Source: a virus. From it: DNA of 64,000 nt. The notes below the pieces were generated by a model. That model made no database searches. It worked only from the letters and a program-made list of their open reading frames with translations, and was not told the origin of the DNA. The stretch lies in the IMG/VR virus record IMGVR_UViG_3300044699_000112, positions 10,234 through 74,233 of that record, one strand, 5' to 3'. The position numbers and the translations under genes were made by a program. The number at the start of each line of letters is the position of its first letter. The first letter of the stretch is position 1. Below are positions 21,409 through 62,472 of the stretch, in pieces.

Positions 21409-24400
21409 TTGGCTATAAACGCGAACTCTATCGATCGAGCTCGGCAGGCCGGTTACAACGATGCCGAGATCATCGACCACATTGCCAGCCTGAAGGGCTA
21501 CAAGGGCGTGCCCGAAGCACGCTCCGCGGGCTACTCCGACATGGAGATCCTCGGCCACCTGCGGACACTCGAAGATCCCGTCAGTACGCCGACAGTGATA
21601 CCTGGAGCGGAGAAGACCGGCACGCCCGGCATTGCCCCCACAACCCTGCCGAAGGGCCTGGGCGGCGGACCGGCCGGTTACCAGCCTCCGACCGAGGAGC
21701 CCTCGCCCTATGCACTCCCCGGCGCGGGCCTGACCGGCCGCCCCGGCATTCCGGAGGTAGAGCTCCCGGTGGGCCTCGGCGGCACCAAAGCTCCGTTCTC
21801 CACCGCCTACGATCCCTACAAGCGAGTCGGCCGCGCGCTCCCCAATCAGGTGTTCGGGGCGCCGCTGAAGACCGACGTGGGCGAGCTCGCCAAGCTCAAG
21901 GCCAAGGTGGCGCCTGGGTACTTGCCCGACGACGACACCGTTCTGCAAGGGTTCATGGGAGAGCCGAAGCCGGAGCCCCTATCCGAAGACCCAGGCTACG
22001 TAGAACGGATCCAGCACGGGCTTCGCGTAGGCTCCGAAGGAGTCGTATCGAGTGCGCTCAGCGGGGGCGAGGCCCTGGCCCGCCGCGCCGCCGTAGCACT
22101 TCCCAAGAAGTTCAAGCCTATCGCCGAAAGGGCTGAGTGGGAGCTCGCGCAGGCCAATGCCGGTAGACCGGAAATGGAGCCAATGCCGGGCTCGAGCGTC
22201 CAGGAGCTCGCTGCGGACTCCGATCTCACTCTGAACAAAGTAGGCAAGTACGCTGTGGGATCTACGGCTCAGGCGATCCCGAGCATCGGGGCCACCGTGA
22301 TTGCGTCCATGCTGCCGGGCGGCAAGATTGCCGGGCCTGCGCTTTCCTACCTGATGAGCGTGGGCGAGCTCTACGAGAACAACGTCAACAAGGGAGTCCA
22401 CCCAGACGAAGCGGCCACGATCGCTGGACTAGGCGGCGGCCCGTCCGCCGCGCTGGACTACCTGGAGCCGTTCCGCATCAAGGCGGCCCTCACGGGCAAA
22501 ACAACAAAGGCCCTCATTGAGGAGACGTACAAGAAACTGGGCATCCTGCGGCGGGCCGGTAAGGCGACGGCCGAGGGCCTTGTCGAATCCGGCACCGAGA
22601 TGGGCCAGGAGCTCATTGCGATTCTCTCTGAGTGGTACGGGACCGGGAAAGCCCCAGGCCTCAACGAGTCGCTCTGGCGGCTCGGCGAGTCTGGCGCCGG
22701 AGCGTTTGGCGCGGGCGGCATCGGCGGCGGAGTGCAGCAGGTCAGCGAGGCAAGGCACAACGCCGGTGCGCGGGCGTGGCAGGACTACCTGGAAAAGGAG
22801 AAGGCGGCCAGGGCAGGCGTCGCGCCTATGGCCCCTGGCGGCCCAGTCCCTGCCCCCGGAGCTCCCGCAGAGGCAGCGCCAGCCGAGGGGGAAGTGCCGC
22901 CGCCTGGAGCCGCGCCACCAGGAGCAGCCGCTGCGGGCCCGGCAGCCGATACGGCGCCGCCCAGGCCGCTCTTCGATAGCCCGGAGGACCTCTACCAGGA
23001 CGCGACCCAGTTTGCCGGTGGCTTCCGCCAACTCGGCGTGACCGCGCTTTCCCAGAAGTACGGCATCACCAAGGACGAGGCACATGCGATCCTCGAGCGT
23101 TTTGTTGAGGATGGCCTTTTTGCCGCTAAGCCGCTGAAGGGCGGCGGTGTCAGTTACGTGAACCTCGCGTTACAGCGCGAAGCCCGCGAGATCGACCCGG
23201 CTACCGGCCAGCGTATCCGTTCGCCGATCACCAAGAAGGGGGCCCTCGAAGAAGCAGCCGGGCAGTTCATCCCTCCAGGCGAGGGCGCGATCGCCCCCGG
23301 CGAGGGCCCGGCCGTAGAGGACGAAGAGGCTCCCCTGGCGGCCGCGCCGGTCATCGAGCAGCCGCGGACCGAGCCGCCACCACTACCCACTCAACAAGCG
23401 CCTCCGCCCGCTCAGCAAGAGGCGCCGCCCCAGGAAGCCGGGCCGCAGCCTGACCAAGCCGACCTGGACATGATCTACAGCGCCCCTTTGACCCAGGAGC
23501 AACAGGCGTGGGCCGTCGAGTTGCTGGGCCAGGGCCACTCTGTCGAAGACGCGATGGAGATCGCGCACCGCGGCGAGGAAGCTCCGGCCGCGCCAGCACC
23601 AGTCCAAGCAAAGGAGGAGGCACCACAGAGACCAGAACCACTGCCGTCAGCATCGGAGCAGGCACCTCCGCCTGCTCCGGCGGCACCAGAGGTCCAGCAG
23701 GAACCCCTGGCAGCCGCCAAGCTACCCGAGGAGCAGCAGGCGCCTGCTGCCCAGGCTCCGGCGCCCGCGGTCCAAGAACCCTTAGAAGCAGCCAAGCCGC
23801 CCGAGCAGGCCGCGGCGCCGACAGGTACGCCATTCGACCAAGCGAAAGAGCACGCTAGGGGCAATAAAGCCATCAAGGCAGATGAGCTTATCCAAGGCTT
23901 CGGCCTCACGGCAGACGAGGCCCACAACGTCCTCTGGGATTTGTACCCGGCTCGTATGCGCAAGGAGAAGGCGAAGGCCATCGCCGCCGAGAGGCGCAGC
24001 GCCACCATCGAGGCCAGGAAGGCAAAGGCTGGCCAGCCGGAGCAGAAGCCAGGGCCGACCCCAGCGCCCTGGGAGATGACTCTGGAAGAGGTAAACCAGA
24101 CCGGGTACATCGCCCGCGACGTTAACGCCGGGAACATGCCAATCGTGCGGCCCGCCACGATAGATGCTGGAACCGCGGCGTCGAACGCTTCCGAGCATAA
24201 GCGCGTAGTGGCCGAGGCAGTCGCTCAGGGTAAGCCGGTCCCGGCGAAGGTCCTGGCCGAATACCCTGACTTAGTTGCCATCGATCCGGCAGTTAAGGCC
24301 GCCATCAAGAGGCGCGAACGGGAGCGCGCAAAGGCTGCCCAGGCCGCGGCGCCCAAGACTGAACAGCAGGAGCCCTTGGCGGCGGCTAAGCCGCCCGAGC

Positions 24401-27400
24401 AGCAGCAGGCGCCACCTCCCCCAACAACCCAGGTTGCGGCCCCGTCAACTCAGGTTGAGCAGCCATTGGCTGCCGCCAAACCGATCGAGAAGGAGGCACC
24501 AAGTGGCACAGAAGCCAAAGCCGAGGAAGATTTTGCCCTCCCCGCCGGGGATGAGTCGACAGGCGGTCAAGCACTTCAACGTGGCCCAACTGGCGGCCGA
24601 GAAGGCGCGCCTGGAGGGGAAAGACGAGAAGGAGGCGTTCAAGGCCGCACTGCGGAAGCAGTGGAAGGAAAAGGCGAACTAGACTTCAGCGACGTACCTC
24701 TGAAGGCGGTCGCCAAGCCGAGCAGGGAAGGCTTCCTCGAACGGCTGAAGGCGGGCGATGTCAGGGGTATGTCGGTCGAGGTAATGGGCGCCGTCGCCAG
24801 GGGCCTCGTTAAAGCGGAGGACGCCGCGGCTCACATGGTCAAGACCTACGGCGCCAAGGCGAAGGCTTACGCCAAAGACGTTGCCGCCCAGGTCCAGGAG
24901 TGGGAGCAGAACCCGGCGCGCCTCGAAGAGATGGAGGCGTCGACCGCCCTGCCGAAGGGCAAGAACAAGACGGTTGACCCGATCACCGGCCTCGCCGTTA
25001 CCGGCTACAACAACGCCATCAAGGACCCGAGCGCCTTTGCCAAGGCGATCGCCCTGATGAACAAGTATGTGAACTTCGCCGACATTAACGAGGCGACGCC
25101 CGAGGCGACGGCCGAGAAGATGATCCAGCGGATCGTCGACAATCTGCTGTTCCTCCACGACAAGTACAAGGAGCTCGGCTTCTCCGAGCGGGCACGTCTC
25201 TGGTACGACGGCGGGCGCAAGAAGGTCCTGGCGAACGCCGAAGAGTATGGCATCAACGAATTCCAGTCCGCCGCGGTGTTAGCCGTGTTCTCGCCGGAGA
25301 AGGACTGGTTCCAGAACGTCGACATGGCGCGGCGCATGCTCGAGTGGTGGAAGAACCGCAAGACGTTGAAGTGGACTCCGCAGATGGACGCCATCTACGT
25401 CAACAAGATCCTGCCAGCCAAGAGGAATCAGGACAAGAACACCGCCAAGAAGCGCGAGGCCAAGTACCTGAAGGACCGCGCCGAGTTCCCGGCCAAGGTG
25501 GCCGAGTGGCGCAAAGCCAATCGCGAGGCGAGGCTCGCCGGGACCGCGAGACCGAAGAGGCCGAAGAGGCCGGAGCGGAAGCCGTTCGAGCCCAGCACCA
25601 AGGTCACCGATGCGCTCGCCGCCATCCAGGGCAAGGGCGCCAGCGAAATCAAGAGCACCTACCAGCAGGCCGTCTGGTTCCGGCTCTGGGACGAAGCGCA
25701 TAACAGCCGGAACTACCAGATCATCAGCCCCGAGGGCGAGTACACCGGCCTCGCCATGACCGAGGCGAAAGAGGGCAAGGTCGGCAAGGGCGGCAAGATC
25801 GGCAAGGCGAAGGAAGCTAAGCCTGCCAAGGTGGCATGGTCGAGCTACAACCCGATGGTCAAGGCCCTGATGGTCCTCAAGGACGGCTCCTTTGAGAACA
25901 TCAGCAGGCAGGTCGGCCAGCGGCACAAGGTCCGGAACTTTTACAACAACCTCCTCGACCCTGAGAACCCCAACGGACACGTCACCTCCGACACACATGC
26001 CGTAGCGGCTGGCCTGATGCGGCCGCTGGGCGGCTCGGCGCTCGAGGTCGAGCACAATCTCGGCAAGGGCGTGGCCTCGGCCCGGACCGGCGAATCGGGC
26101 ACCTACTGGATGTTCGCCGAAGCCTACCGGCGCGCCGCGCGCGAGCGCCATCTCCTGCCGCGGGAGATGCAGTCGATCACCTGGGAAGCGGTGCGCGGGC
26201 TCTACAAAAATCTGAAGAGTAAGGCCAATAAAGATCGCGTTGTCGAGATCTGGAATGAAGTGAATAGTGGTAAAATTACTCCAGGTGAAGCACGTGAAAA
26301 GATCTATAAAGAGTTCAACGGAATCGACACGCCAGCCTGGGCCGGAAGCGGAACGGGACGAGGGCGGGATACTGCAGTTGATGAGGGAAGAGGGGGCGCC
26401 AAGGACGAGGAAGGAGTTCTTCGCTTACGCCTACCCGGACCTGGATCCGGAGGAGCCTCTGTCGGTGGAGGAGGAGGCGGATCTCCCCGAGGACTTGCAG
26501 CACGAGTCAATGAGGGAATCCGAAAAGTAGGCGATGCGCTCCGCGCGAGGCATCCGGCCAGTACGAATGCCGCTATCGGCGCTTCCCTGGCTGGCTCGGA
26601 TTACACGTTCAAGACCGGCCCCGGCCAGACCGGCACGGTGTACGCAAACCCGGCGGGCATCGAGTTCATCGGCCACCTCACCAACGATCCGCATATCGGC
26701 GGAATAAACCTACCGGGCAAATCAGTCGATAACGTTCTCACCTTCATCGACAGCTTCGTCAACGGCCCGAACCCGAACCGGGCCCAGCTTGCCAAGCTGC
26801 AGCCGCTCTACGAGGGGATGGAGAAGTGGCGGCAGGCGAACCCTGGAACAGATGTCTCGCTGAACTTCGCCGTCCTCGACAATAAGCGCCCCTTCGCCTG
26901 GACCCGCCAGACCGCACGCGAAGAGCTCATCCACGGCTTCCAGCGCCTCAAGCAGGTCACCCGTGCCGCCCGCGAGACCATCCTGAAGACGCCGGTGTTT
27001 GAGAAAGCCCGCCTGGATCTGATCCGGCAGGGGTACGGTGACGACGTTGAGATCCGGCCCGGCGACACCGCCGACGAGAAGGCCCAGAAGCACTTCATCG
27101 CCTGGATGGAGATCACCGCCAAGGTGCTCTCCGGGGACACGCTGGGGCTCACCATCTCCGAGCGCGAGGACGTGGCCTATGCGTACCGGGAGGCGCTGAT
27201 CGCCGAGCATGGTGATGACGCCGTTCTCGTTTTCCGCTACCTGAAAGCCGGGTCCGTGAAGGATGTTTTCCTCGGCAAGAAGCTGCCGGGAGAGGGACTG
27301 CAGCGGGCACAGGCTGACCTGCAAGAGGGAGAGGCTGAACTGCAGCGGCTGCTGAAAGAACTACAGCAGATACTGGATGAGGAGAAGGCGAAGGGGGGTC

Positions 27401-30400
27401 CGCTGGCCGACCTCGACTTCGCCGAAGTCGACCTGCCTCACCTGACTGAGCCGGAAGGAGCCCTGAGGGCCCGCCAGCCCCAGCAGCCCCCGCAGCAGCC
27501 ACAGACCACCCAGGCCCTGGCCACCACCACCCAGCAGCAGCAAGGCCAGCAGCAGAGCCAGCAGGGGCCGCAGCAGCCGCGAGGCGCCGGGCCCGGCGGC
27601 ACCGGCCCCACTGTCGCCCAACGCTTCGACCAGACCAACGCGGCGGCGGAGCACGCGCGCCAGTCTGACGAGAAGACGCGCATGGAAAAGTTCAAGGAGG
27701 GCATGAAGTTCATTGGCACGGCCTTCACGCGGCAGTTCCACCATATCCCCGCCGGTGCACTCTATGCCGAGTTCAAGCAGAAGCTGAACTTCGTTTCGAA
27801 GAGCCAGGGCAACGCGATCCACAAGGCGGCCCAGGCCATCATCGACCAGTTAGAGAAGCTCGACCCGGACGAGTACACTCAGTTCCTCCACGTGGTCCTC
27901 TACGACGATCTGGCCGCGCGCGTGATCCAGTCGATCAAAGAGAAAAAGCCGATACTCGCCAAGGACCTGCCGTTGGGCATCCAGGATGCCCGCGAGGTCA
28001 TCAACTTCAAGACCGAGGCCCGCAACCGCGTCCGCGGCAATCCCAAGATCGTCGAGGCGCTCCGGCAGCGCAAGGCCATGTGGGACAAGATCAAGCCCGA
28101 GTACGTCGCGGCCATGCGCAGGGCTGGCGTCGACGTGTCCAAGGCCGTGGCGCGCAAGGACTACTTCCGCCATCGCGTGATCAAGCACCAGAAGGCCAAG
28201 GAACTGATCGGCGGAGGCGGCACCGGCGCCGGTCAACGCTTCAAGCTGCCCACGGCGCGTAGCTGGATGAAGAAGGCCGAGGTCAACGCGAACACCTACT
28301 CGCTCGACTACATCCGCTCGGAGTTTGAAGTGCTCTCGGAGATGATGTACGACACCGAGCGCGCCAACTTCATCGGCTGGCTCAAGAACGACTCCGGGCA
28401 CAACATCTCTTCGCAACTGAAGCGGATGGCAGCGGCGCACAACAAGGCCGAAATCATGCCGACCTTCGCCCGCATGGCGCGCCACTACAACCAGAAGAAT
28501 CCCCGCGCCCCCAGGATGACCGCCGAGATGGCCTACCAGAAGGTCATGAAGATGCGGCCGCGGGATCCAAGCTGGCGCACGCGCGTCACCAAGCGGATGG
28601 CAGGCGCCGAGTACGTGGGGAGCCTCGAGGCGGCGTATAACAAACTGACGCTGCCCAACGGCAACAAGGCGCTCGATACCCACGCCCTCTATCAGGCCAA
28701 CGAGAAGGACCACTTCTTCCTGGCCGCGACCATCCCCGATTCGCTGGCGGCGGCGATCGAGGCCAACGGCCAGGGGCGGGTCACGGCCGACAAGATCCGG
28801 AAGATCAAAGCCAAGGGCGCCCGCCAGGGGCAGATGGTGCTGCCGCGCGAAGTCATCGAGACCATGAAGGAGTTCATGCAGCCCCCGAGCACCAAGTGGG
28901 GGCAGTTTGTCGACAAGTGGAGCCGCAAGCCGCTGGCGTGGTGGAAGCAGTCCAAGCTAATCCATCCGGTGGCGGTGATCAAGTACAACCTGCGGAACCT
29001 CTCAGGCGACCTCGAGCGCGTGCTGATCACCAACCCGTACGCCCTGAAGCACGTGGGGCGGTCGATGGATGAGATTCGCAAGTTCATGAAGACCGGCCAC
29101 CCGCCGAGCCCGGAGTTCGAGGCATGGTGGGAGCGCGGCGGCATGGACGCCAACCTCCAAGTGGCCGAGATCGGCGAGGTCAACCGGCTGCAGAAGCTCG
29201 TCCACCTCAAACTGAAGGATCCGAAACTGGGGCGGACCGAGAAGGGATTCGACAAGGCTGGTAAAGCCTGGGACGCCGTATGGAATACCACGAGGAAGAT
29301 GACCGACTTCCGCGAAGGGATCCTGCGCTACGCCACGTTCCTGGAATATCAGAAGCAGATCGCGGCCAGCGGGACCGGCAAGCCGAACAACTTCGGGGCC
29401 TCGATCCGCGAGGAAGTGATGGCGCTCCGGAACATGGACGACCGGGCGTACAAACTCTCGAACGACCTGATGCTCGCCTACGACGAGGTGAGCGTGGCCG
29501 GTCAGACGCTGCGCCGTCACTTCATCCCCTTCTGGTCGTTCCAGGAGAAGAACCTCGGGGCCTACAAGCGCATGGTGGTCAACTCCTACAAGGACGGGAG
29601 GACTTCGGCGGCGATCGGCTATGCCGCGCTCGGCGCCAGCGCCTCGGCCCTGCGCGTGGGCCTCTGGACCGCGGCGAAGATCGGCAAAACCCTGACCCTG
29701 GCGATGGCGCTCAAGGCACTCACCGAGATCTGGAACAACTATGTGATGGACGACGAGGAGGAGGATCTCCCCGAGGGCGTCAAGAAGTCGACCCACCTCA
29801 TCCTGGGCCGGGACTCCAACGGCAAGGTGATCGCGTTCACACGCCTGGGCACGGCCGACGACATCCTCGAATGGGGCGGCCTCGAAGCGGCGCCCTACTA
29901 CGTCAGGGAATTCCTCAACAACCGCATGACCTACGAGGATCTGGCCAAGGAGATCGCGCTCCGGCCGTTTGGCATCCCGCTGCCAATCAAACCGGCCATC
30001 AACAAGGTTGCGCAGAGCATCCATCCGGGGATCAAGACCACCGCCGAGTACGTCAGCGGCCGCGCTTGGTTCCCGAACGTCTTCGATCAGCGCGAGATTC
30101 GCGATCGCTACGAGTACATCGCCCGCGAGCTCGGCATGACCGCCGTCTACAAGGCAGCCGCCAGGAAGCCGCAGCCGAAGTTCTGGACGCCCGAGCGGGT
30201 CCTCGACCTGATGGTCTACCGCTACGATCCCAAGGAAACGCACTACAACTCCTTCAAGTACGACAAGGTGGCCAAGTGGGGCGCCGAGCATGGCGCCGAC
30301 CCAGGAGGGGGCCTCTCGCAGAAGAAGGCGGCCGCGGCGCTCTACGACCTCCGCATGGCCGTCCGGTACAACGATGACCGGGCGCGCGATGCGGCCCTCG

Positions 30401-30645
30401 TTGCGTACGGGGAGGCGGGCGGCACCCAGCAGAACCTGAAGAAGTCGATCGAGCGGCTCCATCCGCTCGGGACGTTGAAGAAGGCTCTGTGGAAGGACTT
30501 CGAGAAGTCGCTGAGCAAACCGGAAGCCGCTCAATTGAAAAAGGCTATACAGTTCTGGGAGGAAAACTTCCACTCCAAGGTGGCGCAGATTGAAGGCGCC
30601 GCTTCCCGGCAAGGTCTGCCGGAGAAAAGAAAGCGAGGAAAGTGA
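21409..30645 (+). CDS. Giant polyvalent internal virion (ejection) protein
   Basis: 3078 aa; N-terminal tandem AR.AGY.D.EI repeats; Gly/Ala-rich membrane segments; central enzyme-like domain; LPD38-like C-terminus (RRHFIPFWSFQ). Confidence 0.75.
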   Translation: MAINANSIDRARQAGYNDAEIIDHIASLKGYKGVPEARSAGYSDMEILGHLRTLEDPVSTPTVIPGAEKTGTPGIAPTTLPKGLGGGPAGYQPPTEEPSPYALPGAGLTGRPGIPEVELPVGLGGTKAPFSTAYDPYKRVGRALPNQVFGAPLKTDVGELAKLKAKVAPGYLPDDDTVLQGFMGEPKPEPLSEDPGYVERIQHGLRVGSEGVVSSALSGGEALARRAAVALPKKFKPIAERAEWELAQANAGRPEMEPMPGSSVQELAADSDLTLNKVGKYAVGSTAQAIPSIGATVIASMLPGGKIAGPALSYLMSVGELYENNVNKGVHPDEAATIAGLGGGPSAALDYLEPFRIKAALTGKTTKALIEETYKKLGILRRAGKATAEGLVESGTEMGQELIAILSEWYGTGKAPGLNESLWRLGESGAGAFGAGGIGGGVQQVSEARHNAGARAWQDYLEKEKAARAGVAPMAPGGPVPAPGAPAEAAPAEGEVPPPGAAPPGAAAAGPAADTAPPRPLFDSPEDLYQDATQFAGGFRQLGVTALSQKYGITKDEAHAILERFVEDGLFAAKPLKGGGVSYVNLALQREAREIDPATGQRIRSPITKKGALEEAAGQFIPPGEGAIAPGEGPAVEDEEAPLAAAPVIEQPRTEPPPLPTQQAPPPAQQEAPPQEAGPQPDQADLDMIYSAPLTQEQQAWAVELLGQGHSVEDAMEIAHRGEEAPAAPAPVQAKEEAPQRPEPLPSASEQAPPPAPAAPEVQQEPLAAAKLPEEQQAPAAQAPAPAVQEPLEAAKPPEQAAAPTGTPFDQAKEHARGNKAIKADELIQGFGLTADEAHNVLWDLYPARMRKEKAKAIAAERRSATIEARKAKAGQPEQKPGPTPAPWEMTLEEVNQTGYIARDVNAGNMPIVRPATIDAGTAASNASEHKRVVAEAVAQGKPVPAKVLAEYPDLVAIDPAVKAAIKRRERERAKAAQAAAPKTEQQEPLAAAKPPEQQQAPPPPTTQVAAPSTQVEQPLAAAKPIEKEAPSGTEAKAEEDFALPAGDESTGGQALQRGPTGGREGAPGGERREGGVQGRTAEAVEGKGELDFSDVPLKAVAKPSREGFLERLKAGDVRGMSVEVMGAVARGLVKAEDAAAHMVKTYGAKAKAYAKDVAAQVQEWEQNPARLEEMEASTALPKGKNKTVDPITGLAVTGYNNAIKDPSAFAKAIALMNKYVNFADINEATPEATAEKMIQRIVDNLLFLHDKYKELGFSERARLWYDGGRKKVLANAEEYGINEFQSAAVLAVFSPEKDWFQNVDMARRMLEWWKNRKTLKWTPQMDAIYVNKILPAKRNQDKNTAKKREAKYLKDRAEFPAKVAEWRKANREARLAGTARPKRPKRPERKPFEPSTKVTDALAAIQGKGASEIKSTYQQAVWFRLWDEAHNSRNYQIISPEGEYTGLAMTEAKEGKVGKGGKIGKAKEAKPAKVAWSSYNPMVKALMVLKDGSFENISRQVGQRHKVRNFYNNLLDPENPNGHVTSDTHAVAAGLMRPLGGSALEVEHNLGKGVASARTGESGTYWMFAEAYRRAARERHLLPREMQSITWEAVRGLYKNLKSKANKDRVVEIWNEVNSGKITPGEAREKIYKEFNGIDTPAWAGSGTGRGRDTAVDEGRGGAKDEEGVLRLRLPGPGSGGASVGGGGGGSPRGLAARVNEGIRKVGDALRARHPASTNAAIGASLAGSDYTFKTGPGQTGTVYANPAGIEFIGHLTNDPHIGGINLPGKSVDNVLTFIDSFVNGPNPNRAQLAKLQPLYEGMEKWRQANPGTDVSLNFAVLDNKRPFAWTRQTAREELIHGFQRLKQVTRAARETILKTPVFEKARLDLIRQGYGDDVEIRPGDTADEKAQKHFIAWMEITAKVLSGDTLGLTISEREDVAYAYREALIAEHGDDAVLVFRYLKAGSVKDVFLGKKLPGEGLQRAQADLQEGEAELQRLLKELQQILDEEKAKGGPLADLDFAEVDLPHLTEPEGALRARQPQQPPQQPQTTQALATTTQQQQGQQQSQQGPQQPRGAGPGGTGPTVAQRFDQTNAAAEHARQSDEKTRMEKFKEGMKFIGTAFTRQFHHIPAGALYAEFKQKLNFVSKSQGNAIHKAAQAIIDQLEKLDPDEYTQFLHVVLYDDLAARVIQSIKEKKPILAKDLPLGIQDAREVINFKTEARNRVRGNPKIVEALRQRKAMWDKIKPEYVAAMRRAGVDVSKAVARKDYFRHRVIKHQKAKELIGGGGTGAGQRFKLPTARSWMKKAEVNANTYSLDYIRSEFEVLSEMMYDTERANFIGWLKNDSGHNISSQLKRMAAAHNKAEIMPTFARMARHYNQKNPRAPRMTAEMAYQKVMKMRPRDPSWRTRVTKRMAGAEYVGSLEAAYNKLTLPNGNKALDTHALYQANEKDHFFLAATIPDSLAAAIEANGQGRVTADKIRKIKAKGARQGQMVLPREVIETMKEFMQPPSTKWGQFVDKWSRKPLAWWKQSKLIHPVAVIKYNLRNLSGDLERVLITNPYALKHVGRSMDEIRKFMKTGHPPSPEFEAWWERGGMDANLQVAEIGEVNRLQKLVHLKLKDPKLGRTEKGFDKAGKAWDAVWNTTRKMTDFREGILRYATFLEYQKQIAASGTGKPNNFGASIREEVMALRNMDDRAYKLSNDLMLAYDEVSVAGQTLRRHFIPFWSFQEKNLGAYKRMVVNSYKDGRTSAAIGYAALGASASALRVGLWTAAKIGKTLTLAMALKALTEIWNNYVMDDEEEDLPEGVKKSTHLILGRDSNGKVIAFTRLGTADDILEWGGLEAAPYYVREFLNNRMTYEDLAKEIALRPFGIPLPIKPAINKVAQSIHPGIKTTAEYVSGRAWFPNVFDQREIRDRYEYIARELGMTAVYKAAARKPQPKFWTPERVLDLMVYRYDPKETHYNSFKYDKVAKWGAEHGADPGGGLSQKKAAAALYDLRMAVRYNDDRARDAALVAYGEAGGTQQNLKKSIERLHPLGTLKKALWKDFEKSLSKPEAAQLKKAIQFWEENFHSKVAQIEGAASRQGLPEKRKRGK

Positions 30646-54006: not shown

Positions 54007-54067
54007 TCACCTCATTGGGAAATATCCCAGGAGTGGCGCTCTCGCGAACGCCCTCCCTGCGATGCTT
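54007..54067 (-). repeat. Structured intergenic element type A, copy 1
   Basis: Sense: AAGCATCGCAGGGAG-GGCG..CGCC-ACTCCTGGGATATTTCCC-AATGAGGTGA. Confidence 0.9.
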
Positions 54068-54920
54068 ACCGCCCAAACGGCTCGACGAAAATGGCGTACT
54101 CGCGCCCCTTGCCGATGCCTTCGATTGTGACCGTCTCGGGCGCGCCGTCCATCGCGAAGGCGTGCCACAAAAGGCCGGTCATCTCCTGGTTCCTGGCGAG
54201 CTCGACCAGGACGGAGGGGTCATCCCGATCCGGCTCGACGCGGTGGTACTTGCCGTCGCTGGTGGTGAACCACTCGAACAGGTAGGCGTTGACGTGGAAC
54301 TCGGCCGTGCCGATCTGCATCTTGGAGTAGAGCGACAACGGCGCGCCGTCCGTCCCTTCGACCGGCTCCAGGTTGACGCGCCACTCAAAGTCGTTCGCCT
54401 TGATGCGCACCAAGTCGTCCTCGTCGAACTCGCCAGCCGCCCGTCGAGGCTCGTTGTCTCCCTCCGGCGCCTGCGGATCGCAGATCGGGCAGATCCCGTC
54501 CTCGCCGCACTCACCGGCCTCGTGCGCGGCCTTCTGCTCGGCCTCCCCGATCCCCTTTTCGAGCTCCTTCCACGGACCGGCCTCGCTCCAGTAGTCCGAC
54601 ACGCGATCCGCAGCGGCCATCAACGGCTCCAGGTTCGTGTGATAGTCGCTGATCACGTCGTACCCATCGTTGCCATACACGAGCACCACCTCGCCGCGCA
54701 CGCCGAGCACCTCATCGAGGGGCCCGCGCCGGGCGCCCAGGTAGAGGCGGTCCATGTCCGTCGTCATCAGGGCGCCCATGATGGCCGCCTTGTCCTTGCT
54801 GTTCCAGAGCGTGACTTCCTCGCCGTCGTTCACGCTGATGTCATGGCCCGCCTGCAGGGCCGAATCCAGGAAGGCGCCAATCACTTGGCGCTCCACATAC
54901 TGCCGCATTCTCACATTCAT
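54066..54920 (-). CDS. Conserved accessory phage protein
   Basis: ISVNDGEE...VLVYGNDGYDVISDY motif; GAGGTGA RBS. Confidence 0.65.
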   Translation of the reverse strand: MNVRMRQYVERQVIGAFLDSALQAGHDISVNDGEEVTLWNSKDKAAIMGALMTTDMDRLYLGARRGPLDEVLGVRGEVVLVYGNDGYDVISDYHTNLEPLMAAADRVSDYWSEAGPWKELEKGIGEAEQKAAHEAGECGEDGICPICDPQAPEGDNEPRRAAGEFDEDDLVRIKANDFEWRVNLEPVEGTDGAPLSLYSKMQIGTAEFHVNAYLFEWFTTSDGKYHRVEPDRDDPSVLVELARNQEMTGLLWHAFAMDGAPETVTIEGIGKGREYAIFVEPFGR

Positions 54921-55634: not shown

Positions 55635-55706
55635 TCACCTCGTCATGGGAAATGTCCCAGGAGGAGCACGAGCTCGCAAGCTCGCGCCCTCCCTGCGATG
55701 CTTCCC
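55635..55706 (-). repeat. Structured intergenic element type A, copy 3
   Basis: GGGAAGCATCGCAGGGAGG-GCGCGAGCT..AGCTCGTGC-TCCTCCTGGGACATTTCCC. Confidence 0.9.
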
Positions 55707-55709
55707 GCA

Positions 55710-56867: not shown

Positions 56868-57513
56868 TCAGTCCCTCGCCCTCGCCTTCGCCCGGTCCTC
56901 GGCCCGCCCTCTTTCGAGGCGCTGACGCGACTCCCAGGCCCGGTGCATGTCATGCAGCACCGTGCCCACGCCGAGCACGCTGAAGAAAATCAGCGGAATC
57001 CAGAACAGGTCCCAGCCGCTCATCGCTGGCCCCCCTTCTTCGCCTTCTTCGCGGCCAGCCGCTCTTCCCGCTCGGAGCGCGCCAGCAGCTTCGCCGCGAG
57101 ATCATACACGGCCTCGTAGGCCACCAGCAGCCGCCGCCGCGTGCCCTTGCGCCGGAGCTCAATGTGCCGCGGATGGAGCTCAATGAGCACCGTCCGGGCC
57201 CGTCCGCCGTCCCGCACCGAGACATCCGTCTCGCGCCGCACCGGACGATCGAGGCGCGTCATGCGCGCCACCCGTACGGGTCGTTCGCGTCGACGGCCCC
57301 GATCGCCTCCAGAGTCTTCTGGATCGGCCGCAGCCGCGCCAGCAGCGTGTGGCCCTCCAGGAACAGCGCGGCCGCATACGCATCGCCCGCCGTCTCGCGC
57401 ACCGTGCCCACGTAGAACCGTCCCTTGGGGCCCTTGCCGCTGCGCAGGAACTGCGCCCACTTCCCGGCGTGCGGGCCCTCGCCCACCTGCCGGATCGACT
57501 TCTTCGAAATCAT
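56868..57513 (-). other. Three small genes (56868-57023 single TM; 57020-57262 basic; 57259-57513)
   Basis: ATGA-coupled ORFs between elements B1 and B2. Confidence 0.55.
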
Positions 57514-57516
57514 CGT

Positions 57517-57587
57517 CCACCTCGTCTCGCGATAGATTCGCGTCAGGCGCCCGCGGCCTTGGCCGCAGGCCCTGCTCGTACCTCCCG
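57517..57587 (-). repeat. Structured intergenic element type B, copy 2
   Basis: GGAGGTACGAGCAGG-GCCTGCGGCC..GGCCGCGGGC-GCCTGACGCGAATCTATCGCGAGACGAGGTG. Confidence 0.85.
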
Positions 57588-57773
57588 CTACTCGTCCTCG
57601 TCGATCGGCTCATCCGACCAGTACTGCGAGTCCGTGAAGATGTCAGGCCGATACTTGGCCTTCGTCTTCGCCTCGCAGTCGTCGCAGACGTAGCCGCAGG
57701 GGATGCTGCGGGCGTCGTACAGGATCCAGCGCGGCTTGCCGGAGCCGCACCGGCACTCTTTGCCCTCGCTCAT
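57588..57773 (-). CDS. Small zinc-binding conserved phage protein
   Basis: CRCGSG...LYDARSI...VCDDC...YRPDIF. Confidence 0.65.
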   Translation of the reverse strand: MSEGKECRCGSGKPRWILYDARSIPCGYVCDDCEAKTKAKYRPDIFTDSQYWSDEPIDEDE

Positions 57774-58358
57774 CGCGCCCCCTCCGCCCGGAGAATCTCG
57801 ACCTCTTGCCGAGCCTCGTCCTCATCGTCGAAGCTCTGGGCGTCGTACTCGCCCGTGGCGTCCTCGACGATCCACTCGCGCTCGATGCCGTCGCCGTCCT
57901 CGATCCCGTGGATCGTGAACCGCTCGGCCTCCGGCTTGATCACCGGCCCGCGCCCGTTGATCCGGATCCCCTGCGGAGCGCCAAGCTCCCGCTCAGGCTC
58001 CGGCTTGGGCCCGTGCTCGCCGATCCGGATCACAAACTCGAGTCCCGGATACACCGACTCCATCTCCGCCCGCGCCTGCGTCAGCGCCCAGGCCGCGTGC
58101 TGCTCGGCCCGCCGGCGAGCTCCCAGGCCTCGACGTCCCCCAGGACGCCGCAGACCACAATCTCGACCTTGCCGAGGACGCTCATATCGTCACCCCGGCG
58201 TCGTCGAAGCGCATCTCGATCTGCTCCAGCAGATGCTCGGCCGCCCGCTGCTGCCGCAGGAAGTCCCCGGCCAGCCGCTGCCATGTCCCGGTCTCATCCA
58301 CCGGCCTGCCCTCGGGCGGCGTCAGGCACGTCTTGGCGTGCTTGGCGTTAATCGTCAT
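57770..58358 (-). other. Three small hypothetical genes (57770-58063, ~58060-58184, 58181-58358)
   Basis: Coupled ORFs; the first has a GAGGTGA RBS. Confidence 0.5.
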
Positions 58359-58373
58359 CGTTTCACCTCGTCT

Positions 58374-58537
58374 CGTTGAGTGGAGTGGACGAGCGCCGGT
58401 CAGGGAGCGGACCGCACCATTCCCAGGCGCGGCAGCGACTCATCTTGGCCTGATCTCGGGTTCGCTTTTCACCCTATCCGGCCCCCTGCGGTTTCTGCCG
58501 GAGCGTTACCTCCCCGGCGCTCGTCCACCCACTCACG
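58374..58537 (-). ncRNA. Candidate structured ncRNA / leader (multibranch, two pseudoknots)
   Basis: ~22-bp closing stem, three inner hairpins, loop complementarities ACCGCA/TGCGGT and AGCGA/TCGCT; no credible ORF. Confidence 0.6.
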
Positions 58538-58600
58538 TTCTCGCGATAGATTCGCGTCAGGAGCCTGCCATCGTGGGCAGGCCCTGCGTGTACCTTCCGC
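58538..58600 (-). repeat. Structured intergenic element type B, copy 3
   Basis: GGAAGGTACACGCAGG-GCCTGCC..GGCAGGC-TCCTGACGCGAATCTATCGCGAGAA. Confidence 0.85.
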
Positions 58601-58602
58601 CT

Positions 58603-59567
58603 TCAGCCGGTCACCTTCATCGCCCAGTGGGCCGCCAGCCGCGCCAGCCGCCGCGCTTGCCCGGCGTCCACGTCCTTGACCCAGTACACCGCCGCGCTGC
58701 CGTAGGCCCCGGCCTCGGCCAGGGCGTGCAGCGTGTACTCCGGCCGCGTCATCGTGGAGCGGCGGCTCGGAATCACCGCGAGCCGCATCTTGCGGCCGCC
58801 GCGCTCGATCACCACCGTCTCGGCCCGCTTCACCGGGCCACCACCGGCGCCGCCGCCAGGGCCTTCTCCAGCGTCCGGATCGCCCGGTCCACCTTCGCCA
58901 GGGCCCGCTCGGCCGCCGCCTGCGAATCCCCCGGCCCGTACCCGTCGCCCATCAGCGACGCCACGTTGTGCCCCCCGGGCCGCCTCGTCCACGAAACGAC
59001 GCGCCGCCAGCAGCGCGTTCAACATCTCCCGCTCCATCGCTACACCTCCTGCCATGACAGCATCGCTGCCAGCTTGTCCGACATCACCGCGGGCCGCACG
59101 CTCGAAAGCTCGACCCAGACGCGGCCGTCCCCGGCCACCGGCCGCACCAGCAGCCTGTTCTTCCCCCACGAGTTCTTCACGTCCTCGACTACGCAGTCGG
59201 ATCCAGAGCTCACCTCCGGATCCGGCCCGCAACTGCACCAGGGCGCCCACTGCCGGGCTCATCTCGACCGCCGTGTAGCGGGCCGCTCATGCGCCCACCA
59301 CCTTCGGACCGGCGTGCAGCTTGGCGGCAGGCCAGGATCATCTGCGCCGCCCGGTACATCGCCGCCGCGCTCGGCCTCTCGCCGCCCAGCGCCTCGATCG
59401 CGGCCACGAGGTTTGCCATACTCCAGGCGCATCAGTGCGCTTTCGAGTTGCTCGCCCTGGCCCTCGGCCTTGAGGCCAGTAAGTAAAGCCCCGGCCCGCT
59501 CGGCCTTGGCGGTCAGCAGTAGAGCTCGTCCCGCCTGCAAGTCCGCTTCCACCGTCTTCTTCGTCAT
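58603..59567 (-). other. About five small hypothetical genes, boundaries blurred by indels
   Basis: Starts at 59567, 59419, 59290, 59038 and ~58832, with coupled stop/start junctions. Confidence 0.4.
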
Positions 59568-59572
59568 GTCTT

Positions 59573-59637
59573 TCACCTCAGGGGAAATGTCCAGGAGTGG
59601 CATGCCTGCCCCGGCATGCCCTCCCTGCGATGCTTCC
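59573..59637 (-). repeat. Structured intergenic element type A, copy 4
   Basis: GGAAGCATCGCAGGGAG-GGCATGCC..GGCATGCC-ACTCCTGGACATTTCCCCTGAGGTGA. Confidence 0.9.
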
Positions 59638-59642
59638 GCCTC

Positions 59643-59969
59643 TTACGGCGTCATCGCTCCTCTTCGACCATCGGCACCTCCCGGCCGTACCAGTCGACCT
59701 CGGCCGGTGTGTAACCGGCCGTCCCGCTCAGCGCGCCAGGAGATCCAAACCGCCCCCGGCCCCGGCCGTCGCGCAGCCGTCCACCACGTTGCCAGCACAG
59801 CCGCGGCGCGCCCTGGTTCCCGCCCACCACGAACACCGCCGCGTTGCCGCCCGAGAGCAGCAGCACCGCCCTGGCGAAGTCCACCGCCTCGGCCGCCTTT
59901 CTTCTGCGAGGCGCCCTCGTAGGCCGTGTAGTACTGGCCGGGCGCGTTCACTGTCACACGAAATGTCAT
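59643..59969 (-). CDS. Single-gene cassette, hypothetical (indels)
   Basis: ATG after GAGGTGA of A5; stop abuts A4. Confidence 0.5.
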   Translation of the reverse strand: MTFRVTVNAPGQYYTAYEGASQKKGGRGGGLRQGGAAALGRQRGGVRGGREPGRAAAVLATWWTAARRPGPGAVWISWRAERDGRLHTGRGRLVRPGGADGRRGAMTP

Positions 59970-59973
59970 CGAA

Positions 59974-60030
59974 TCACCTCAGGGAAATGTCCCGCCAGGG
60001 GCTCGACAGAGCCCTCAGCGCGATGCTTCC
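59974..60030 (-). repeat. Structured intergenic element type A, copy 5
   Basis: GGAAGCATCGC-GCTG-AGGGCTC..GAGCCCC-TGGC-GGGACATTTCCCTGAGGTGA. Confidence 0.9.
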
Positions 60031-60315
60031 CTACGCCATCTCCTCGGGATCGACGAAGGCGCACAGTGCGCCATCGAAGTACCGGCGCCGCTCCTCGGGC
60101 GTCTGATCGTGCCAGCCGCTGGCCGCCCTTTGCGCTGGATGCTCCATCGCGTAAGGCCGCCTCGCACTCCAGCGAGTAGAGGCCCGTCCAGGACCACTCG
60201 CGCTTGAACTCCGGCCCACGCCCGCAGCGTCGCCATCGCGGCCTGTGACCGCCGCCACTGCTCGGGAGGCATCGCCTCCATCACCTTGCGCCAAATCGCC
60301 CGTTTCCATTGCCAT
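60031..60315 (-). CDS. Single-gene cassette, hypothetical (indels)
   Basis: ATG after A6; stop abuts A5. Confidence 0.5.
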   Translation of the reverse strand: MAMETGDLAQGDGGDASRAVAAVTGRDGDAAGVGRSSSASGPGRASTRWSARRPYAMEHPAQRAASGWHDQTPEERRRYFDGALCAFVDPEEMA

Positions 60316-60319
60316 ACCT

Positions 60320-60382
60320 TCACCTCGTGGGAAATGTCCCAGGGCGTGCTCTGCCTCCAGAGCACGGCCCGCGATGCTTCCC
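60320..60382 (-). repeat. Structured intergenic element type A, copy 6
   Basis: GGGAAGCATCGCGGGC-CGTGCTCTG..CAGAGCACG-CCCTGGGACATTTCCCACGAGGTGA. Confidence 0.9.
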
Positions 60383-60384
60383 GC

Positions 60385-60712
60385 CTACGCCAGCCGCCGA
60401 TACTTCGAGCTCGGCCGCCTCTACCGCCCGCCGCGCCGCAAATCACCTGGCGGTTAGTGCCCCACCTTCAACGCGAGGTCTCTCGGCGGTGTCCTCGGTG
60501 GTCACCACCTGATACCATGCGTATCCCGTGGGCTTGGCCTGCCCTTCCCGGTGCTCTACCTCAGTACGGCTCGCCGGGTGGATTGCACGGGTCGCACACC
60601 CACCAGAACGGCGTGAACGCCGCCCCCCACCACCGGCTCGTCGCCCCTGGTTCACCACCAGCCGGTATCCGCCTTCGGCTGCCCATGAGCCGTCGCAGAT
60701 CGTGTATGCCAT
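60385..60712 (-). CDS. Single-gene cassette, hypothetical (indels)
   Basis: ATG after A7; TAG at 60385-60387 abuts A6. Confidence 0.45.
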
Positions 60713-60722
60713 GTCTTCTCTC

Positions 60723-60782
60723 TCACCTCGTGGGAAATGTCCCAGGAGAAGGGCTCAGCGGAGCCCCTCCCTGCGATGCTTC
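60723..60782 (-). repeat. Structured intergenic element type A, copy 7
   Basis: GAAGCATCGCAGGGAG-GGGCTC..GAGCCC-TTCTCCTGGGACATTTCCCACGAGGTGA. Confidence 0.9.
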
Positions 60783-61418
60783 TACGCCTTCGCCCTGGCA
60801 GATCTCCGCCGGTCGATCGCGTCTCTCCATCCGATCGAGCTCCACCGCCGCCCCAGGCCTCCCTCGACCGCGGCATCCACCACCACCGGCTTCGTCCGTC
60901 ACCCGGCGTCGCCCAGGAGCGCCCGCACGTCCCGGGTCAAGCTCGGCGTTGCGCAGCCAACTCGGCCGCTTGGCCCGCTCTTTCACCAGCCTGCGCGCCG
61001 TGCTTGATGCCCGCCGCCTTCGCCCTTCGCCGTCCCAGTCCTTCACGTCCAGGCTGATCTCGGCCCAGTACTCGTGGCAGTCCGATCCCCGCCCGCTGCC
61101 AGCCGAGCGTCCCAGGGCTCGTCACCTGCTGCTTGCGCAGATCTCCGGCGGGTTCAACGAACGTGTCATCACGCCCAGAAACCCGTGCGCCTCGAAGTAC
61201 CCATCACGATCGCCTTGCCGATCGAGTTCTATCTCGATCACGGATCGCCTCGCCTACCGCGGGACCCGGGAACAGCGCGCTCCACAAGAGCTCCTCGCCG
61301 CCGCTCGTTCCGGTACCTGCGGAACGTCTGGCCCTCGATCCGTACCGTGCCATCAGCCACCGGCACGCGGTAATAAAGAACCGCTCACGGCATGTTCTTT
61401 CGTCGTTGTCTCAGTCAT
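60782..61418 (-). CDS. Cassette gene, hypothetical (multiple indels)
   Basis: ATG 61418 after A8; TAG at 60782-60784 abuts A7. Confidence 0.4.
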
Positions 61419-61423
61419 GTCTT

Positions 61424-61483
61424 TCACCTCGGGAATATGTCCCAGCGAAGGCACTCCAAACGAGTGCCCACGCCGCGCATGCT
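61424..61483 (-). repeat. Structured intergenic element type A, copy 8 (divergent)
   Basis: AGCATGCGCGGCG-TG-GGCACTC..GAGTGCC-TT-CGCTGGGACATATTCCCGAGGTGA. Confidence 0.8.
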
Positions 61484-61794
61484 GTGCCCACTCCCTAGCA
61501 GGTCTCGCCGTTCCGCCATCCGGGGCTCCCGGCCAGGGGTCGACCTCGCCCGCCGCCGCCGGGCAGCAGGCTGGCGAACGCCCCCGCCGCGCTTCCACCG
61601 CCCGGTCGACCACCTCGGCCAGATCGTCCGCCGTGATGTAGTCAATCCCGTCGCCCAGCACGTCCAGCGATCCACTGCGCCCGTCCACCGCCCGCACACC
61701 GCCGCTCGACGTCAATCTCCCAGCCCGTCCCCTGGCGCTCACTACGGACGTAGCCGCCCTCGATACTCACTCACTTGCCTCATGGCCATCAACC

Positions 61795-61860
61795 TCACCT
61801 CAGGGAAATGTCCCAGGAGTCGCTCAGGCCGCAGCCTGAGCCCTCCCTGCGATGCTTCCC
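61795..61860 (-). repeat. Structured intergenic element type A, copy 9
   Basis: GGGAAGCATCGCAGGGAGG-GCTCAGGC..GCCTGAGC-GACTCCTGGGACATTTCCCTGAGGTGA. Confidence 0.9.
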
Positions 61861-62161
61861 GCTTACTCCGCCTCCTCCAGCCCGCCGCCGCCGCACCTCG
61901 GCCGCGTGCCAGTTGTACCCGCCGCCCGCGCCTCCGCCACCGCGTCCGCCTCCACCCACTCGGCCCCGATCACACTCGGGTAACCACTCGCCTACCCACT
62001 CGGCCCCGTCCAGCCGCACCGTCACACGCCCCGTCGACCCGGCGTGCCGCGGCTCCTGCCAGCCGAGCAGCGCCCCAATCTCGCCGCGGAACGTCTCAAC
62101 CCGCCTGCCCGATCACCAGCGGCACGCCCCGATGTACTCACCAGCACCATCTTCGCCATGA

Positions 62162-62450: not shown

Positions 62451-62472
62451 CGTCCTTTCACCTCGTCTCGTG

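Follow-up and report, generated by a model that had tools for sequence, protein, structure and literature searches.

An element of 159 nt with complementary ends lies between two small ORFan genes of a soil phage, and the question it raises is whether it acts as a folded RNA, belongs to the intergenic hairpins of its operon, serves as a DNA site, or arrived as a mobile insertion. The window analysed here is a stretch of 64,000 nucleotides (bases 10234-74233 of an IMG/VR virus record of 74,233 bp, rated complete by CheckV). In the first-pass annotation of this window, the locus was described as a functional ncRNA (ribozyme, aptamer, decoy, or antiterminator), closed by a long stem and folded further by dense tertiary pairing that included two pseudoknots, and a MITE-like insertion was named as an alternative. 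The anatomy of the element proved to be that of an insertion, which a transposase presumably put in place.

The phage is a novel 74-kb soil phage whose group, made up of ~73-kb soil phages, is uncultured. For its structural proteins neither PHROG nor Pfam has a family, and cultured phages offer no match; a 469-aa structural protein is common to twelve IMG/VR contigs at 60-65% identity. The phage encodes a tyrosine recombinase (Xer-like, with matches to general phage integrase families) about 10 kb from the element, and it also encodes DnaB and a DnaD/O-like initiator. No transposase of the rve or DDE_Tnp_1 families is encoded in the phage. Searches for a host were made from two of its proteins: a structural protein had no prophage relative in 301 Myxococcota genomes, and the Atlas neighbours of the DnaB helicase yielded no usable taxon.

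The GC content of the phage is 64% overall and 68-70% across the 54-62 kb region. From about 54 kb to 62.4 kb, small ORFan genes are arranged in series on the minus strand as an early operon, with an AT-richer regulatory stretch and a leader of ~290 nt upstream of the operon genes. The element lies inside this polycistronic operon and is therefore presumably co-transcribed with it. The 58-aa ORFan downstream of the element has no Pfam or PHROG family, and the two small proteins downstream have no relatives in IMG/VR. In front of almost every gene of the operon stands a repeated intergenic element, either type A or type B, whose end falls just before a GAGGTG(A) SD.

The eight type-A elements (Table 1) align as a hairpin of ~60 nt with a GGGAAG/UUUCCC base, an internal loop, a CAGGGAG/CUCCUG helix, and a variable top stem, and each ends 2-6 nt before its SD. 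Five pairs of the hairpin show compensatory changes, and conserved G-U pairs occur on the sense strand only, indicating selection on RNA structure. Type-B elements carry a conserved core that, at B1 and B2, ends in ATCGCGAGA and is directly contiguous with (A)CGAGGTG-N-ATG; the sense strand reads ...ATCGCGAGA-ACGAGGTGAGTGAGG-ATG at B1 and ...ATCGCGAGA-CGAGGTGGACG-ATG at B2. A reading of element B as a T7-type promoter was dropped when no single-subunit T7-type RNAP was found in the phage, though the control for that search was silent too.

Element B3 has a different arrangement. Its sense order is core, ACG, the element (TGAGTGGG...CCACTCA), a second ACG, and AGACGAGGTGAAACG-ATG, with AGACGAGGTGAAACGATG as the sequence that follows the right-hand ACG. 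The element thus occupies the position directly after B3 where other elements carry the RBS, and it has ACG at both ends on the sense strand, both as first annotated. The B3 core and the complete RBS unit ACGAGACGAGGTGAAA are intact on its two sides. This 16-mer is identical before the first operon gene (62456-62471) and before the 58-aa gene (58361-58376). When the element is removed in silico together with one copy of the flanking repeat, a B2-like or B1-like junction of core and RBS results. As a separate observation, CGAGACGAGGTG is present after B2 too.

Table 1. Features of the element, its flanks, and the native intergenic elements of the operon (window coordinates).
Feature	Coordinates	Strand	Length	Description
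Element proper	58377..58535	-	159 nt	Non-coding; 67% GC; TG start and CA end on either strand
Sense 5' arm (terminal inverted repeat)	58514..58535	-	22 nt	CCGGCGCTCGTCCACCCACTCA; all pairs Watson-Crick
Sense 3' arm (terminal inverted repeat)	58377..58399	-	23 nt	TGAGTGGAGTGGACGAGCGCCGG; one extra base, A58384 on the plus strand
Unique core	58400..58513	-	114 nt	Small GC-rich hairpins and two proposed loop complementarities, none beyond chance
Left flanking direct repeat	58536..58543	-		Sense CGAGAACG; last three bases ACG (58536-58538) adjoin the element
Right flanking direct repeat	58369..58376	-		ACG (58374-58376) adjoins the element; sense CGAGACG at 58369-58375
Intergenic element B3	58539..58600	-		Variable hairpin 58558-58586 and conserved core CTGACGCGAATCTATCGCGAGA
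Small hairpin in B3 core	58542-58556			CGCGA-N5-TCGCG
RBS unit	58361..58376	-		ACGAGACGAGGTGAAA; SD GAGGTGA at 58363-58369
Downstream 58-aa ORFan gene	58182..58358	-		ATG 58356-58358; GC3 0.90
Upstream ORFan gene, 3' end	58603..58752	-		Stop codon 58603-58605; GC3 0.98
Type-A elements	54013-54072, 55643-55708, 59578-59642, 59978-60037, 60325-60388, 60728-60793, 61428-61490, 61799-61862	-		Hairpins before operon genes

The arms lie where the first-pass annotation had placed them (Table 1), and the stem they form is real and beyond chance. It consists of 15+6+3 Watson-Crick pairs (~24) with two single-base bulges. G-U pairs and internal loops are both absent from it, and either strand forms it equally well. 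Beyond the 22- and 23-nt arms the complementarity breaks off at once, and the likeness of the inner halves of the element is at shuffle level (p 0.68), for which reason a palindrome of the whole length (ERIC-like) was rejected.

Evidence that the sequence is real comes from Logan short-read contigs of four other soil studies, which were aligned to 57000-60000. Soil runs X2 and X3 contain the same phage, with flanks identical over kilobases, and pieces of the element at 58319-58412, 58383-58603, 58420-58536, and 58421-58571 have zero differences in independent contigs. No single short-read contig covers the whole element, the breaks falling at 58383-58412. An assembly artefact was rejected because the independent contigs agree on the element. 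Protein coding was rejected as well. GC by codon phase is 0.73/0.64/0.65 in the element, with stops in all three sense frames, and is 0.88-0.98 (GC3) and 0.42-0.55 (GC2) in the neighbouring genes; with no codon-phase signal there is no hidden ORF. A conserved ORF appearing after sequence correction, which would have undone the first description of the locus, is likewise absent, the element being identical in independent contigs.

The same comparison showed how the locus varies. Element 31-mers are present in soil metagenomes of 12 studies, and no RNA dataset with these 31-mers was found among the runs listed. In the four soil runs compared, the element is always beside this phage's kind of flank, and no unrelated context was seen. 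In other soil runs the assembly graphs fork at the left arm (58383-58412), where a second left context appears. In X3, a 519-nt contig of lower depth matches the window only over 58359-58412 (the RBS-like flank and an arm) and differs beyond, and an X4 contig (249 nt) has a copy of the element, ~5% diverged, joined to a B core and unlike the window past 58557. These variant contigs may be homologous loci of related phages with swapped neighbour genes, or further insertions at similar targets. No contig joining the two flanks in an empty-site form was listed in the soil runs compared, but since contigs drop rare variants this speaks neither for nor against such an allele.

Prokaryotic MITEs are defined by a size of 50-800 bp, TIR of at least 10-15 bp, and a TSD of 2-10 bp (PMC11602168). 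The size of the element (159 nt, non-coding) and its TIR (22/23-nt arms, ~24 bp Watson-Crick with two bulges) lie within this definition (PMC11602168), as would the length of a putative TSD, which is ambiguous at 3 to 8 bp. This putative TSD may be read as ACG/ACG or as the longer, imperfect CGAGAACG/CGAGACG; CGAGA(A)CG is also the canonical motif of the B-core/RBS junction, and since CG is self-complementary, ACG...ACG can be read as an extension of the stem as well. Like prokaryotic MITEs in general (PMC11602168; reviewed in PMC10969869), the element is small, non-coding, and intergenic, with TIR of at least 15 bp, a short direct repeat, and no transposase, and like phage-borne MITEs it is in a virus genome. 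MITEs in phage genomes are rare, occurring in about 0.2% of viruses screened (PMC11602168). The element differs from MITEs in being single-copy, with no sibling or parent IS in the collections searched (phages, plasmids, IMG/VR, species genomes, and metagenome contigs).

The phage itself has no second copy. With blastn, INPHARED phages gave only one 24-nt chance match, and PLSDB plasmids gave no match to the element. Scans of IMG/VR for paired arms, for the left arm with an inner 26-mer, and for the B core gave nothing, or chance matches in unrelated low-GC contigs. An 11+11 pattern of the TIR cores had 51 matches in one genome each of 185,579 species, none with further similarity, and 12+12 TIR cores had 11 matches in JGI metagenome contigs, all by chance. 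Five genomes (Corallococcus, Polyangiaceae, Myxococcaceae, a delta-proteobacterium, and Streptomyces) returned only noise at E>0.2. In four complete ~73-kb relatives and eight partial ones, the element was absent both by BLAST and by a covariance model (sequence plus structure), which was built from the single sequence and, across 394 kb of DNA from related phages, recovers nothing but that sequence. One related 73-kb phage has a hairpin of its own at 66670-66835 (~150 nt, with 19-bp arms), in an AT-richer regulatory stretch beside a region that contains TTGACG; this hairpin resembles the element neither in sequence nor by the covariance model.

On balance, the best explanation is that the element is an orphan, non-autonomous MITE-like DNA insertion, co-transcribed with the operon, whose dsRNA stem ends 8 nt before a free SD and is possibly cut by RNase III; we give this reading about half of our belief. 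The first-pass annotation had it as the alternative, and the anatomy fits it better than it fits an ncRNA, but no second copy was found that would prove it. The insertion would have entered the B3/RBS junction of the 58-aa early gene and duplicated ACG (3 bp) or up to 7-8 bp of CGAGA(A)CG. In the mRNA the arms would pair as a dsRNA stem of ~24 bp that ends 8 nt before an accessible SD. A perfect dsRNA helix of ~24 bp is a textbook RNase III substrate, and the predicted stem of the element compares with a criterion for this enzyme class of about 20 bp or more of continuous dsRNA. The effect would range from neutral to modulatory, with the element serving as an extra processing or stability hairpin, for example as a substrate of host RNase III. 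For the downstream cistrons, a similarly neutral-to-modulatory change in processing, stability, or translation would be expected. Catalysis, ligand binding, or antitermination by the element found no support.

Members of the IS3 family have 5'-TG...CA-3' termini, inverted repeats of 20-40 bp, and a target duplication of 3-5 bp, and IS1397, which belongs to this family, targets intergenic palindromic units. By analogy, the TG...CA ends, inverted repeats, and short duplication of the element, and its place beside a small intergenic palindrome, are reminiscent of this family. Unlike IS3, no transposase or related IS was found for the element.

Correia elements of Neisseria form a co-transcribed hairpin that RNase III can bind and cut, which can change how the adjacent gene is expressed (PMC2649163). 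Correia CREE/NEMIS elements are roughly 100-160 bp long, have ~25-bp inverted repeats, and lie next to genes (PMC2649163), and by analogy they may be the best model for the action of the present element. An actual Correia element, which would have the conserved 26-bp Correia inverted repeat and a TA duplication, was rejected: the flanks are ACG rather than TA, the arms begin TGAGTGG, and the sequence comes from a soil phage of 64% GC. The element is unrelated in sequence to Correia elements, the host and phage are unrelated to Neisseria, and Correia elements have hundreds of copies per genome compared to one for this element.

Phages can also carry long hairpins of their own in early mRNA. T7 early RNase III sites and the lambda N-leader are long hairpins in early polycistronic mRNA, immediately upstream of RBSs, built of ~20-bp helices with internal loops and conserved as parts of the phage. 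The type-A elements resemble these T7 sites or PeSL-type cassette boundaries, and type-A and type-B elements alike look like T7 early sites; the stem of the present element is instead a perfect palindrome around 114 nt of unique sequence. In T4-type phages, PeSL cassettes (PMC2839356, PMC4122927) are structured intergenic repeats that border small ORFan genes within a plastic region, where genes are shuffled through them. The context of the element is PeSL-like, but PeSLs combine a promoter with a stem-loop and have many copies, whereas the element is a unique add-on to such a motif.

With these T7 and lambda hairpins as models, there is a second explanation, one that we hold only tentatively and rank well behind a MITE-like insertion: the element may be a cis-acting RNA hairpin that arose within the phage, adding an oversized third type to the operon's intergenic elements. 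An RBS-like stretch could have given rise to it through inverted duplication or template switching, or it could be what remains of a lost cassette, and it could have been kept because its ~24-bp stem, just upstream of the SD, helps to process or stabilise the mRNA or to translate the 58-aa gene. Its position relative to the SD is the same as that of eleven other intergenic hairpins, and these other hairpins act demonstrably at the RNA level (compensatory changes, sense-only G-U). When the whole intergenic region is folded, the B3 hairpins and the long stem are predicted to lie side by side, with the SD unpaired and the base of the stem 8 nt before it; a free SD suits a resident hairpin, as does the retention of the element beside a B core or RBS in variants from other soil metagenomes. 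The lack of a sibling copy in the collections searched also favours an origin in place.

The main reason that an origin within the operon keeps this much probability is the likeness of the arm to native RBS sequences. The sense 5' arm resembles native RBS/start sequences that follow B elements: GTGAGTG-GGTGGACGA compares with GTGAGTGAGGATGACGA after B1 (empirical p 0.01), and GGTGGACGA matches 9/9 after B2 (empirical p 0.03). These p values are empirical, against random genome windows, and other RBS windows score equally high against the arm. The likeness could be due to chance among purine-rich RBS-like strings, to a preference of the insertion for its own ends, or to inverted duplication in place. 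Other features count against a resident hairpin. The stem is perfectly Watson-Crick, with neither G-U pairs nor internal loops, unlike the native elements; compared to type A, this points to a DNA-level and fairly recent origin. The complementarity ends abruptly around a random-like core, the intact B3 core and full RBS unit with a direct repeat look as they would after insertion, and the element is absent at B1, at B2, and in four of the four complete relatives.

The reading first given to the locus, a compact ncRNA acting in trans or in cis (ribozyme, aptamer, decoy, or antiterminator) that needs three inner hairpins and two pseudoknots and might be freed from the early transcript by processing, now appears very unlikely. 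Its parts do exist. ACCGCA (58411-58416) and TGCGGT (58487-58492), AGCGA (58434-58438) and TCGCT (58462-58466), and the pairs GGAG/CTCC, CAGGC/GCCTG, GGGT/ACCC, and TCCGGC/GCCGGA are all where they had been reported. A long helix closing both ends is a common frame for stable ncRNAs, and the slot is non-coding and presumably transcribed. Folded over 164 nt, the locus reaches -93.4 kcal/mol on the minus strand (z -5.97) and -88.5 kcal/mol on the plus strand (z -6.47), and no shuffle folds as well on either strand. On its own, the interior (58400-58513) folds no better than its composition predicts (z -1.05 minus, -0.54 plus), so the signal of the whole fold comes entirely from the closing stem. 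Complementary 5-mers in the interior number 10, compared to 6.9 +/- 3.1 in dinucleotide shuffles (p 0.19), and complementary 6-mers number 3, compared to 1.8 +/- 1.6 (p 0.27). At this level both pseudoknots and the inner hairpins are what chance provides in sequence of 65% GC, and the claim of dense tertiary pairing does not survive.

Comparison with known RNAs agrees with this. Rfam had zero matches at the gathering score over the whole window, and even at E<=10 it offered no family, the element drawing only a plant miRNA-precursor hairpin model and snoRNA models (E 2-9). No structural homologue was found in the related phages. ARAGORN found no tRNA or tmRNA gene in the window, and a retron msr-msd ncRNA was excluded because no RVT_1 match (reverse transcriptase) occurs anywhere in the phage record. 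An intrinsic terminator or sigma-70 promoter was also rejected, with no consensus at or near the element; the three terminator-like matches between 56.5 and 63.5 kb do not rise above shuffle level, and they lie on the plus strand, >800 nt from the element. Among variants listed from another soil run, 58450 C>T disrupts one pair of the CAGGC/GCCTG hairpin, leaving a C-A mismatch on the sense strand (G-U on the antisense only), which speaks against a folded ncRNA, and 58509 C>G would add a pair beside GGAG/CUCC; taken together, these two listed substitutions do not really decide whether the inner structure exists. Barring experiments to the contrary, a catalytic or ligand-binding RNA with pseudoknots should no longer be claimed here.

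We consider it similarly improbable that the element acts as a DNA-level cruciform site, for recombination, replication (single-strand initiation), or protein binding, or as a hot spot of cassette exchange. The arms are perfectly symmetrical and equal on both strands, and the branching of assembly graphs at the left arm would suit such a site. One candidate user is the phage's Xer-like tyrosine recombinase, and the presence of DnaB and a DnaD/O-like initiator also counts in favour. The recombinase gene is ~10 kb distant, however, the genome has a single site of this kind, and 22-bp arms 114 bp apart are unlike the core sites of tyrosine recombinases. An integron attC was rejected on several grounds. 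The ends, GTTGAGT...ACTCACG, are GTTRRRY...RYYYAAC-like, whereas attC sites have R'' (RYYYAAC) before R' (GTTRRRY); apart from two bulges the stem is continuous, without the unpaired central spacer that attC sites have along with extrahelical bases; and the phage's only recombinase matches general phage integrase families, where attC calls for an IntI-type integrase.

Equally slim is the chance of a lineage-specific RNA module, in which RNase III would release a stable RNA of ~115-160 nt to act in trans as a decoy, sponge, or anti-defence RNA, with loops such as ACCGCA/UGCGGU mediating intra- or intermolecular contacts, as a new class of phage ncRNA with no Rfam relative.

If the element is a MITE-like insertion, it would be a rare transposon-type insertion fixed in a phage, and in a soil phage that is found in several studies. 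Siblings in a bacterial genome would then name a host for the ~73-kb high-GC soil phages, which have no cultured relative. The locus would also be a natural experiment, in which a 24-bp dsRNA stem was placed 8 nt upstream of an SD in an operon with structured intergenic RNAs. In practice it may serve to tag the host, and it offers a structured phage operon that nature has perturbed. If the hairpin arose within the operon instead, the operon's element system gains a third type.

Some observations on the rest of the window are of use to others working with it. A 3078-aa ORF at 21409-30645 on the plus strand has DUF7178 (residues 1482-1597) as its sole family match and no PDB relative by sequence; an N4-like virion RNAP was considered for this protein and dropped on these results. 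Compared to contigs of two other soil studies, the window has at least 42 single-base insertions, at 58977-59898 and elsewhere, none of them inside the element. These insertions produce frameshifted ORF calls at 58977-59898, such as the composite 219-aa ORF at 58603-59262, and any finding on the window that depends on reading frames needs to take such errors into account. The gene after the 58-aa ORF seemingly starts at an overlapping ATGA (about 58186) and runs into a 97-aa ORF. On the minus strand, the ORFs at 58081-58186 and 57770-58063 meet at an apparent one-indel junction near 58100-58130; short-read contigs over 57213-58384 have one gap, so the split gene is probably a single gene interrupted by an error in the window.
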